The translations under genes and the position numbers were made by a program. A model generated the notes under the pieces. That model was not told the DNA's origin. It was given only the letters and a program-made list of their open reading frames with translations, and searched no databases. Positions 10,143-33,262 of a DNA stretch of 64,000 bases are shown here, one piece after another. Origin of the DNA: Octopus sinensis (taxonomy: Eukaryota). The stretch covers positions 31,806,001 through 31,870,000 of the forward strand of contig NC_043012.1 of the NCBI RefSeq assembly GCF_006345805.1, given 5' to 3'. Each line of letters starts with the position of its first letter. Position 1 is the stretch's first letter.

Positions 10143-10935
10143 TAGATAATAAAACGTATGGTTTATACCAGGTAGCTTACTGGTAAAGCAATAGACCCTT
10201 TCAGTGAACGTTACGTGTCTGGTTAATGAGAGACGGAAGATGGAAGGTACGAGAATTTTTTTTATAAATAACTAAAATCGTTTCGATACATATAGCACCG
10301 ATTTCAAGAACTGTTGCTTCATTTTACTATATTCTTTATGCGGTGCAAGCGTAAGACACCGTCACGGGGTGTCCAATACAAATGTAGTGGGAATGAATTT
10401 TAGTAACTGTTAACGCAATCCACCTTAAGGTATGTATGAATTAAACTTAGCTTTAATCTTCCCATTTTTATAAACACCAATTAGCTCGCTATGTGAACGT
10501 ATGACCGCCAAACCTCGCGTGTACGTATGCTTACATCTTCGTGGCTGTTTGTATGAGCCAGTGTACATGCATCATAAAGCTACGCGGTGTTTATACATCT
10601 ATATCCATCGCCAGTTATGTTTGATACATTTTCACTGTATTGTGTGCTGGTTTCTTTTTCGCATCTGTTATTTAATTACTAATATTCTTTATTAATGAAA
10701 GTATATAATTTAACTTGCTGCTTTTCTTCACAAGAACTGAGAAAATAGGTTGCGGAACTGTTATTTCAATGAGTAGTACCTGTTTCTCAACCGTCGAGAG
10801 ACATTTATGCTGTCGGATGATCCCGAAGCAGCTATGACGTATCCCACCTGTGAGGGATCGATTCTAGATGTGCCGAGACAATTGTAGTGATTAATAAATC
10901 TCTTATCTTCCATCTTCCGTCTCTCATCAAGCAGA
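10143..10935 (+). mobile_element. Non-coding PLE 3' region with inverted 5' copy of its end
   Basis: 10378-10933 aligns with 22185-22745 downstream of the GIY-YIG relic; 10143-10305 is the reverse complement of the element's 3' end (22660-22820). Confidence 0.8.
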
Positions 10936-11157
10936 TATATACACATATTCATACATATATACGTATATATATATAATATATATATATATATATGTGTGTG
11001 TGTGTGTGTGTGTGGCCACGTGTGTATCGTTGGCGATTTTCTTTCTCCGTCTTCTCTTCCTTGGACCTTCTTTCTTTCCTTTCATGAGCGTCCAATAACA
11101 CTATACTTGTTCCACGTCCTCGCGTTGTTGTGTTTTCCCTTTGTTCATGTTTGGATT

Positions 11158-12650
11158 AACTATATATATATATACATATATATACATATAATATATAAAT
11201 ATATATATATATATATACATATAATATATATATATATATATATATATATACATATAATATAATATATATATATATATTACATATAATATATATATTATAT
11301 ATATATATTATATATACATATAATATATATATATATATATTATATATAATATATATATAATATATATATATATATACATATAATATATCTATATATATAT
11401 ATATACATATAATATATAAATATATATATATATAATATATATATAATATAATATATATATAAATAATATATATATATATACATATAATATATATATATAT
11501 AAATATATATATATATATATAATATATATATACATATAATATATTATATATATATATATATATATATACATATAATATATATATATATATATATATACAT
11601 ATAATATATATATATAAATATATATATTATATACATATAATATATATATAAATATATATATATATACATATAATATATATATATATAAATATATATAATA
11701 TACATATAATATATATAATAATATATATATATAAATATATATATAAATATATAATAATATATATATATATTTACATATATATATACATATACATATATAT
11801 ATATATATACTATATATATATATATATATATATGCATATACATATATATATATATACATATACATATATATATATATACATATATATATGCATATACATA
11901 TCTATATATATATATACATATATATATATATATACATATACATATATATATACATATACATATATATATATATACATATATATATATACATATATATACA
12001 TATATATATATATATGTATATATATATATATGTATATATGTATATATATATATAGATATATATGTATATATAATATATATATATATATACATATAATATA
12101 TATAATATATATAATATATGTATATATATACATATATATATATATATATATGTTATATATATATATATATGTATATATAATATATATATAGATATATATG
12201 TATATATATACATATAATATATATATATATATGTATATATGTATATATATACAATAATATATATATATATATAGTATATATATATATATATATATATACA
12301 TATAATATATATATATATATATGTATATATATATATAATATATATACATATATAATATATATATATATGTATATATTATATATATATATAATATAATATA
12401 TATATATATGTATTTATATATATACATATAATATATATATATGTATATATATATATATACATATAATATATATATATGTATATATATATATACATATAAT
12501 ATAATATATATATATGTATATATATATATATATATACAATAATATATAAATATATATATATATATATATATTATATATATATATATATATATATATAGAT
12601 AGATACATACATACATACATACGTACATAAATACATATATATATTAATTT
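11158..12650. repeat. ~1.5 kb degenerate (TA)n array just upstream of the GPCR main exon
   Basis: Directly visible. Confidence 0.97.
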
Positions 12651-12686
12651 CATGACTATATATTATATATTTTCTTTCTTTTTCAG

Positions 12687-30520: not shown

Positions 30521-30704
30521 TATATATATGTGTGTGTGTGTATATATATATACACACACATAAACATACATGCATAAATATATATATATATAAGTGTATA
30601 TATATATATAATATATATATATATATATATATATACATAAATACATAAACACGTGCAGACACTCAAACACACACACACATATATATATATATATATATAT
30701 ATAT

Positions 30705-31765
30705 AATTCTTTAATTCTTTCAGCTTTAAAGCTGCAGTCATGCTGGGGCACCACCGTTGGCTGTGCTACACTATTAGTTGAAACCTCCTCTGATATGTGG
30801 CATTTAGTTAATGAGGGGGTTTGATGCTGCTGCCCTCATCTGTGTTTTCTGCTGTGAAGTAGGCTCATCTGGAACCTTTAACAAGCGAAGATCCAGTTTT
30901 GTTTTGAAGACACCTACATCCACACCATGCATGTCATTCGGGCATTTTGGAAAGATATTGAAGAACTGTGGGCCCTAAAAATCCAAGCTATTGCTGTAGC
31001 TGTTCCTTTACTTTTATGGTGATGCTGGCATCTTTGGTACTATGCAGTGGCGCCCCGTTCTGCTGTTTGTGTAACATTCAATGCCAAGGTTTGGTGTAAG
31101 ACCTTCTAGGATTCTCCAGATGTATATCCCTGCATACCTTTCCCGCCTTCGCTCCAGAGAGAAGTGGTTTAACTCTTTCAGTCTTTTCCAGTAGCTGATA
31201 TGTTACATTGAGACGATTTGTTTTGTGTTAATTCATTGGATTGTTTCAAGTTCTGCCGTTAATTTTATATTGTGCGGGGACCATAATAGGGAGCAGTAGT
31301 CCAAATGGCTGAGGATGTACGCCTTCCAAAGGACCATCATAGTCTCCTTTTCTCTCGTTTTGAAAGTTTGGATGATCCAACGAGTTACCCGACTACATTT
31401 TATTAACAAATTATTAATATGCACCCGGAAAATGCATCAATACCCAGGTCACGTACTGATTTTGATTCGGGATTGCAATTCTTCTTGGGCTGGTGTACCC
31501 TGTCGTTCAGTTTTGTGTGCTCGTAGCACAGGGCTTGGAACTTTCCTGCATTAAACTGCATGTTGTTGTCCCCAGCTCACCTGTATATTACGTCCATCTC
31601 CTGATGCAGATGCGCAATATTACCAGGATTTTGTATTGTCTAAAATACTTCTGTGTCATTTGTATAGCTAGCGACCTTGGCTACCCGAGCAGCTGAGGGC
31701 ATGTCTGAGAGGACCAGTATAAATAGCAGTGGTCCTAACACGGTGCCCTGTGGAACACCTCTTAC
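30705..31765 (-). mobile_element. 5'-truncated CR1/L2-group LINE, second copy
   Basis: GVPQGTVLGPLLF and YTNDT (decayed YADD), SHLDYCSLLWSPH, LETIQ; colinear with 1890-2757. Confidence 0.88.
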
Positions 31766-33043
31766 TATATGTGTTTCCTTTGAGTTATAACAACTTGCAA
31801 TCGCTGTGTATCCAGTGTAAGCCGAAGCAGTAATCCAAGAGAATTTAGCATTCCAGGAAGTTAATTGAGTGAATCCCCACCTCGACCTATAGGACGTATC
31901 AATATTTAATGCAAGTCCAATGAAAAGATATCCCATATATCGTATTGTTTTTTTTTTATAGTTAAAGTGAATTGAAGCGTTTTGAACGTTTAAGATTAAA
32001 GTAATTTATCAGAATGATAACCAGTAAAAAAAGAAGAGAAGTAAACGAAAATGTAAACAGAGATAAAAGTACTGGAAAGAAGAAGCAAAGCTTAAGGACC
32101 TCATCTTGCCTTCGCCTTTGTCATTATCTTATTCTCTTGCGTGAAACCAATAGAATATTTATCGCCTTTTCTTAATATTCTTAATTCAATGTTTCTTATT
32201 TACTTCATTACACACATACACACACATAGACACTCACGCATACACACCTGCATAAATAGATAGATAGATACATACATACATACACACGCACAAAATTATA
32301 TATATATATATATATATATATATATGTATGTATATATATATATATATATATATATATATATATATATACATTATTATCTATGTATATATGTATATATATG
32401 TGTAGATATATATATATGTATATGGATTTATATATATTATATATATATATATATGTATCAAACACACATACACACATATATATATATAAATGAAAAATGC
32501 ATTAAATGTGTGTGTATATATATGTATGTGTGTGTGTATCATATATATAATATAGTACTCATTTAGCTTCCTTGCTCGCCAAAGCAAGAGCAATAATTTC
32601 TCCATATAATACAGAATCCTTTATTTTCTTATATATTTGAGGATTTTTATTTCAATGTGTTTTCCTATTGAGATTTCCAGTGAAAAGGCAATACATTTTA
32701 AACATTCTACATGCACAATTTCCAACAAGCACTGACAAAAGTTTATTATTTAACCCATTAAATGATTCCAGGCACGTTGAATAAGAAAATATTCATTCGT
32801 GGCATCAAATTACAAGTGGCGTAGCATAAACCTTTTAAATACTCTGTCAATTGACTTACAAGCCAGGGATGCCAGAACAGTCTTAGACACTCTTTCGACT
32901 ATCACACGCTTGACCAAAACAAACATCGTAAATTTGATATCCAAAGAGGAGACGATTGCTTGTAATTAATCCAGAAGTGGAAAGAAATTTTATATTTAAT
33001 GGTAGGTATTCTTTATATATATATATATATATATGTATATATA

Positions 33044-33262
33044 TTAATAGGAATGGTATGACAACAAAGAATGAATGAGACCTCGATATTATGTAAATCG
33101 AAGAATTTATCTGTAATATGTGACAATTATTCAGTTGCCATAATAAAACGCCGAGTTTCGGATGTCGGGGTGGAAATCTGCTCCGGTATCTCGTCAGTTA
33201 TGAAGACAGATTGTCTTGATAACTCGGAGTTTTATTATGGCAACCGAATAATTGTCACATAT
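33044..33262 (-). mobile_element. Short palindromic element with an HHR-like motif, in (TA)n
   Basis: Arms 33117-33158 and 33221-33262 are inverted; minus strand has cataa CTGACGA ... cc GAAA ctcggcg TT ttat at 33141-33202. Confidence 0.65.

Follow-up and report, generated by a model that had tools for sequence, protein, structure and literature searches.

Inverted 5' copies of probable Penelope-like retroelements in Octopus sinensis: the hammerhead ribozyme cut likely does not set their break points

Inverted 5' duplications are an already known feature of Penelope-like elements (PLEs), and the locus described here raises the question of what determines the point at which the inverted copy begins. 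The window, a stretch of 64,000 nucleotides of Octopus sinensis DNA, contains inverted pairs (A, B and C) in which the initial annotation placed the start of the inverted copy close to the predicted cut of a hammerhead ribozyme (HHR), proposing that either the ribozyme-generated RNA end or the HHR fold sets the template-switch point. A link between break point and HHR would join two open questions, the tandem and inverted structures of PLEs and the role of their hammerheads (PMC8557442, PMC11167929), and no such claim was found in the open-access literature.

The window is AT-rich animal DNA, rich in (TA)n microsatellites, and its elements (Table 1) are, to judge from sequence features, probably 5'-truncated Penelope-like retroelements of Neptune type inserted in microsatellites. 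The traits of EN+ PLEs present in the window comprise a GIY-YIG domain (in the A family only), a type I HHR, an inverted 5' copy and an optional tail. The second A-family copy, at 22 kb, retains a broken GIY-YIG frame (21791-22162) directly upstream of the pLTR; its segment 21791-21985 gives a weak match to the Pfam GIY-YIG profile (E 0.008, below the cut-off), and the remnant matches 143 proteins (best E 4e-17). A word-based protein search gave no matches. The endonuclease relatives carry a CNCR..CPL..CL linker together with a C-terminal GIY-YIG domain, as in the Neptune/Nematis type; this Cys linker is found in the more distant relatives and is decayed in the closest matches and in the window copy. 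Both Nematis and Neptune are described as having the motif (PMC8557442). All window copies are truncated before the reverse transcriptase (RT), and B, C, D and E, which are devoid of coding sequence, owe their assignment solely to HHR type, tail, inverted arm and (TA)n flanks. PLEs typically carry inverted 5' copies and tails (PMC8557442), and the first reading of the insertions as PLEs with inverted 5' copies is backed by the GIY-YIG remnant of the A family, the HHRs and the confinement of the tail to one arm. A non-LTR retrozyme, which consists of tandem head-to-tail HHR-bearing repeats (10.64898/2026.07.22.740005), was also considered and rejected, as no tandem head-to-tail copies occur among the direct repeats of the window. 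The 5' start of the 22-kb element is present a second time, as a short direct copy at 20929-20978, likewise after (TA)n.

Table 1. Positions of the inverted pairs and of the second A-family copy in the window (+ and - numbers count from the predicted HHR cut)
Feature	Positions	Strand	Remarks
Element A, short inverted arm (160 nt)	10143..10302	-	cut 10274/10273; ~75-nt tail
Element A, long arm	10303..10935	+	5'-truncated PLE 3' region, decayed HHR, without tail
Second A-family copy	21640..22815	+	no inverted arm; tail present; 5' boundary approximate
Element B, long arm	30081..30392	-	5' end 86 nt before cut; ~80-nt tail
Element B, inverted arm	30393..30520	+	from +8 (8th nt past GUA^); without tail
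Element C, long arm	33044..33220	-	~70-nt tail
Element C, inverted arm (42 nt)	33221..33262	+	from -11 before GUU^; without tail
Element E	38262..38660	.	B-family palindrome, no HHR, tail on right arm only
Element D, left arm	42282..42764	-	intact HHR 42451-42529, cut 42458
Element D, spacer	42765..43155	.	partly mirrored (TA)n with an extra copy of D's 5' terminus
Element D, right arm	43156..43634	+	intact HHR 43389-43466, cut after 43459

The HHRs of the window differ widely in quality. A covariance model was built from 40 HHRs of related loci, with 94% of cells paired and changes on both sides in 10 of 13 pairs. Its top five of 14 window matches (E<=10) are D twice (E 0.002), the motif of the 22-kb A-family copy at 22620-22700 (E 0.06; cut after 22693), B (0.47) and C (0.49), the last two being weak. 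The HHR of element A itself is absent from the 14 matches; in the long arm it is decayed, with GAGA for GAAA and a 29-nt insertion, and its cut, after 10886, was therefore placed by homology. A relaxed HHR descriptor found 15 sites in the window versus 6-13 in shuffles, and strict sites numbered two in the window, both in D, versus none in shuffles. No hammerhead family appeared among the 150 of 264 Rfam matches listed, which were all miRNA matches driven by microsatellites. Read against the core CUGANGA/GAAA/NUH, the motif is intact in D and decayed in the main arm of A; the B core has U3 with G8, and C combines GUU with a 4-bp helix I. The B motif occupies 30300-30376, with a UUGAAGA core and GUA^ at 30307/30306, and the C motif 33140-33204, with a GUU^ cut at 33147/33146 that is uncertain by ~3 nt. 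In their present form, the B and C motifs have no folding advantage over shuffled sequences (z 0.66 and 0.28), and the right-arm HHR of D reaches z -3.84.

The inverted pairs were located by self-comparison of the masked window followed by local alignment, and the three starts first proposed were recovered almost to the nucleotide. The inverted copy of A, said to begin inside the HHR-like motif ~30 nt before the cut, begins 29 nt 5' of it; that of B, said to begin ~7 nt past the GUA cut, begins at the 8th nt; and that of C, said to begin ~10 nt before the cut, begins 11 nt before GUU^. The accompanying statement that it is each time the region 3' of the HHR which is copied again does not hold, as arms A and C contain HHR sequence 5' of the cut. 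Since these two arms run through the cut, neither can have started at a cleaved RNA end. The arms of B are 98.5% identical and joined directly, with a 5-bp hairpin spanning the junction (30388-30399); those of C are 95% identical and also joined directly, with a 6-bp junction hairpin at 33203-33217. Such hairpins at two of three window pairs, against a background of 18%, are weak evidence. The spacers, 93 nt in B and ~63 nt in C, are both little larger than the HHR, and the tail is confined to one arm in A, B, C and E, none being seen in D.

Adjacent arms may also arise by independent insertion, above all in A, where the short arm is 82% identical to the long arm (gaps excluded) and 85% identical to the 22-kb copy. 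The similarity between the arms hardly differs from that of each arm to this unlinked copy (81-85%), as separate insertions would predict, but old twin arms would diverge as far, and the arms of B and C, 95-98.5% alike with direct junctions, speak against it. Taken together with later DNA-level (TA)n palindrome formation in D and E, this origin is judged very improbable; pairs formed in either way would be uninformative on reverse transcription.

The picture of three pairs stands as far as A, B and C are concerned, and it left uncounted two further pairs in the same window, so that the earlier observation is partly confirmed: right for three chosen pairs, incomplete for the window. D is an inverted pair of ~480 nt (42282 to ~43640) with arms 99.4% identical, which extend ~300 nt upstream of the cut and hold the best HHR of the window complete in both. 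In E, symmetric arms surround a mirrored (TA)n centre at 38417/38418, which contains a mirrored interruption, and the short arm stops where that of B does. Homology between E and B sets in near +12, where the alignment is AT-rich and full of gaps; E is therefore not placeable and was counted neither for nor against. The symmetric ends and mirrored (TA)n of D and E are what DNA-level palindromes would show, but the tail of E is one-armed and its short arm shares its end with B. These (TA)n-centred palindromes point to snap-back priming. Inside the (TA)n spacer of D, its own 5' terminus occurs again at 42900-42930, which suggests repeated template switching, and directly after D, at 43644-43726, perfect inverted arms of 20 nt round (TA)n form a third (TA)n-centred fold-back, with which a further segment opens.

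The clustering near the cut was compared with a null model of exponential truncation (mean 60-400 nt), with the cut-to-3'-end distances as observed and with the HHR required in the long arm. The probability that three or more of five pairs lie within -30..+10, a zone drawn post hoc from the data, is 0.011-0.030; widening the zone to the entire HHR footprint (-75..+10) gives p 0.06-0.15. For at least one pair within 10 nt of the cut, where B alone qualifies, p is 0.25-0.39. The pair that tells least is C: with a no-tail end just ~31 nt beyond the cut, almost any visible short arm would start in the HHR. Overall, such clustering is mildly unusual but falls short of compelling.

Break points were then collected from related loci, obtained with an endonuclease profile: 80 metagenome loci (the best 80 of 437 confirmed) and 14 from genome bins. 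In 59 of the 94, an HHR follows the endonuclease match by 100-400 nt. The contigs are presumably host-animal DNA, and viral contigs yielded no endonuclease relatives. Contigs filed as bacterial that bear PLEs, HHRs and microsatellites (L081, L083, L087-L091 and L093, from one genome bin; likewise L082, L084, L085, L086, L092 and L094) are probably host-animal contamination.

The 94 loci hold 18 head-to-head junctions, in which the shorter or inverted arm starts between -1537 and +55. Fourteen are tied to the endonuclease-bearing copy (-1537, -967, -702, -699, -667, -628, -581, -427, -354, -216, -187, -72, +30 and +55); four lie in flanking short pairs (-91, -86, -53 and -46). With 14 of 18 junctions coming from endonuclease-selected loci, the set leans to long insertions. 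None of the 18 starts within -30..+10 (95% upper bound 15%), nor does any of the nine junctions located within 250 nt upstream of the cut or lower. Six arms stop short of the pLTR end or at a contig edge (L002, L012, L014, L016, L086 and L094), and the value of L014 rests on a relative's cut position. Excluded from the 18 were tail-to-tail cases (L024, L045, L067, L085, L091 and the first pair of L083), L089 (arm cut by the locus end, -14), the rearranged or other-family pieces in L042, L044 and L052, and inverted repeats with no relation to PLEs. In L036, L086, L093 and L094, junctions remote from the HHR display inverted microhomology or a snap-back hairpin. The contrast between three of five pairs in the window and none of 18 in related loci (Fisher p 0.006), the latter being from other animals with a shorter HHR helix II than in the window, refutes a general PLE rule and makes a host-specific effect possible.

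Among 23 hand-collected 5' ends of related copies, one lies in -30..+10 and eight in -100..-31, just upstream of helix I. This amounts to 11.4 ends per 100 nt at -100..-31 versus 4.7 further up, in a list partly ascertained by HHR, and the excess is a post hoc lead only. Ends 0-20 nt upstream of helix I occur at L061:2128, L081:6951, L087:4635 and L093:4783/4786, and the long arms of B and C in the window also end there, not at the cut. A splice acceptor, a start site at that place or ascertainment could account for them; in D. virilis, an intron end has been mapped to helix I (PMC4209133). Locus L081 further contains, at 6168-7042, short pLTR pieces of three PLE families chained end to end, with a same-strand fragment starting at +5 from its own HHR cut.

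The B family, which is of high copy number, was followed in the contigs of run X1, possibly the source sample, of which 3815 pieces cover its long arm. Summed depth has its maximum a little inside the no-tail end, and by +56 it has lost 74%. It then holds at 0.26 of the peak over +56..+34 before sinking to 0.14 by the cut and to 0.06-0.075 over -21..-54, a 3.5-4-fold drop across the HHR region (+34..-21). There is no sharp step: the cut bin loses 16% of depth, compared with 22-30% per bin at +100 to +67. Contig depth differs from copy count, and the fall is confounded, coinciding with sites 30295 and 30324, at which most contigs are unlike the window copy, and with loose ends of subfamilies. 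No start or end hotspot was reported for the B-family contigs, and no strand change was found among the 15 of 24 joints listed for X1. The depth profile counts against the cleaved-end model and is inconclusive for the fold model. The raw-read runs X22, X23 and X24 were unusable on B, yielding 46 reads, 3461 reads (nearly all from one satellite) and no reads, respectively. In X23, that 46-bp tandem satellite consists of B-family 30197-30239 plus three letters and is present in thousands of reads; it is nearly absent from X22 and X24. No match to the B-family pattern was obtained in metagenome or viral contigs.

According to the first of the two proposals, cleavage would leave a short 3' RNA fragment, from whose 5' end the RT would run off and switch template, giving arms that start at +1 or a little beyond. 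The start of B at +8, possibly that of E and the L081 fragment would fit, but the arms of A (-29), C (-11) and D (~-300) cross the cut, none of the 18 related junctions lies within 10 nt of it, and the cut bin of the B family has no depth step. Metazoan PLE HHRs have moreover been reported to cleave poorly as monomers (PMC4209133), and in Anolis the cut is not marked by the start or end of any RNA read, unprocessed RNA being the main substrate (PMC11167929). The claim that a ribozyme-generated RNA end sets the switch point fails on the crossing arms and the related junctions, and this model is regarded as highly implausible.

The second proposal is that a folded HHR, as RNA or as mirror-image cDNA, stalls the RT or brings the cDNA end near the post-cut region, in which case breaks would be broadly enriched in or beside the HHR with no need of cleavage. 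It is considered unlikely, though several observations fit it: the B and C spacers hold most or all of the HHR and little else, the clustering has p 0.01-0.03, B-family depth falls across the motif, and eight of the 23 related 5' ends lie just upstream. Against it, D and the long arm of A read through long HHRs, a single related 5' end of the 23 lies within -30..+10, the B and C motifs do not outfold shuffles, and the depth drop falls on the contig-variant sites. Of the claim that the fold sets the switch point, what remains is the agreement with the B and C spacers and the B-family depth, with no support beyond these. A narrower version, confined to host PLEs with a long helix II, in which the fold would steer RT stop and fold-back and the HHR would form the loop of the inverted duplication, is likewise doubtful. 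If true, it would give PLE hammerheads a non-catalytic role, which could be read from the tens of thousands of copies in the genome, and the very abundant young families B and D make this host suited to settling the break-point question.

An HHR-set break-point rule is largely unsupported. As other copies break far from the cut, the ribozyme cut is likely not the determinant, and the break points are probably set instead by RT stops and short self-complementary sequence at the junction. From the arm geometry, which is directly visible, we infer a series of steps in which PLE cDNAs would be primed at two fixed 3' start sites, would stop at scattered positions, as in random 5' truncation, and would then be joined or copied by snap-back, self-priming or microhomology, with (TA)n, in D and E, as the presumed centre of the fold-back. 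With the HHR only ~30-230 nt from the start sites and the copies short, a fair share of breaks would fall near it by geometry. What sits less easily with this explanation is the presence of three of five pairs in a 40-nt zone (p 0.011-0.030), the chance that E is a fourth pair near the cut, and the start of the L081 fragment at +5.

Published systems offer several points of comparison. The PLE protein acts on both target strands, nicking and extending each; the tail is delimited by two internal start sites, and HHR mutants leave insertion products unchanged in vitro (PMC11167929). Naiad and Chlamys elements, which have no canonical HHRs, still form inverted 5' copies and tails (PMC8557442), and opposite-strand HHR pairs 100-700 bp apart occur, meaning that both arms keep the HHR (PMC4209133). 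The accessible portion of the retrozyme paper (10.64898/2026.07.22.740005) contains nothing on break points. The window elements resemble the EN+ PLEs Neptune and Nematis in 5' truncation, inverted 5' copy, one-end tail and type I pLTR HHR, but their tails measure ~65-85 nt, as against 30-40 nt in print (PMC8557442). Penelope of Adineta vaga likewise shows an inverted pLTR in head-to-head orientation, shorter than its direct counterpart, and small junction palindromes, which were interpreted as self-priming; D and E differ in being symmetric (TA)n-centred palindromes, and the accessible text does not relate the junctions to an HHR (PMC3846280). Poseidon PAc, examined in vitro from Anolis, shares tail and no-tail ends, nicking of both strands and AT-rich targets, but belongs to another clade, and inverted copies are no subject in the accessible part of that study (PMC11167929). 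The helix II domains of the window span 29-48 nt, compared with 12-25 nt in related loci. In L1 twin priming, two primers per insertion produce an inverted 5' part with microhomology, and L1 inverts without duplicating. The window elements, by contrast, hold the same 3' region twice.

The window has further features. Element B is flanked by a LINE-like fragment (30719-31544) and, at 29644-29736 in (TA)n, a 94-nt inverted copy of part of it (91%); a related fragment lies at 1911-2758. Broken frames of one or two more non-LTR retrotransposons, with RT and C-terminal nuclease-like motifs recognized by eye, occupy 60038-62687 (-). An uninterrupted frame of 412 codons at 12648-13886 (+) encodes a rhodopsin-family GPCR (Pfam 7tm_1, E 5e-21).
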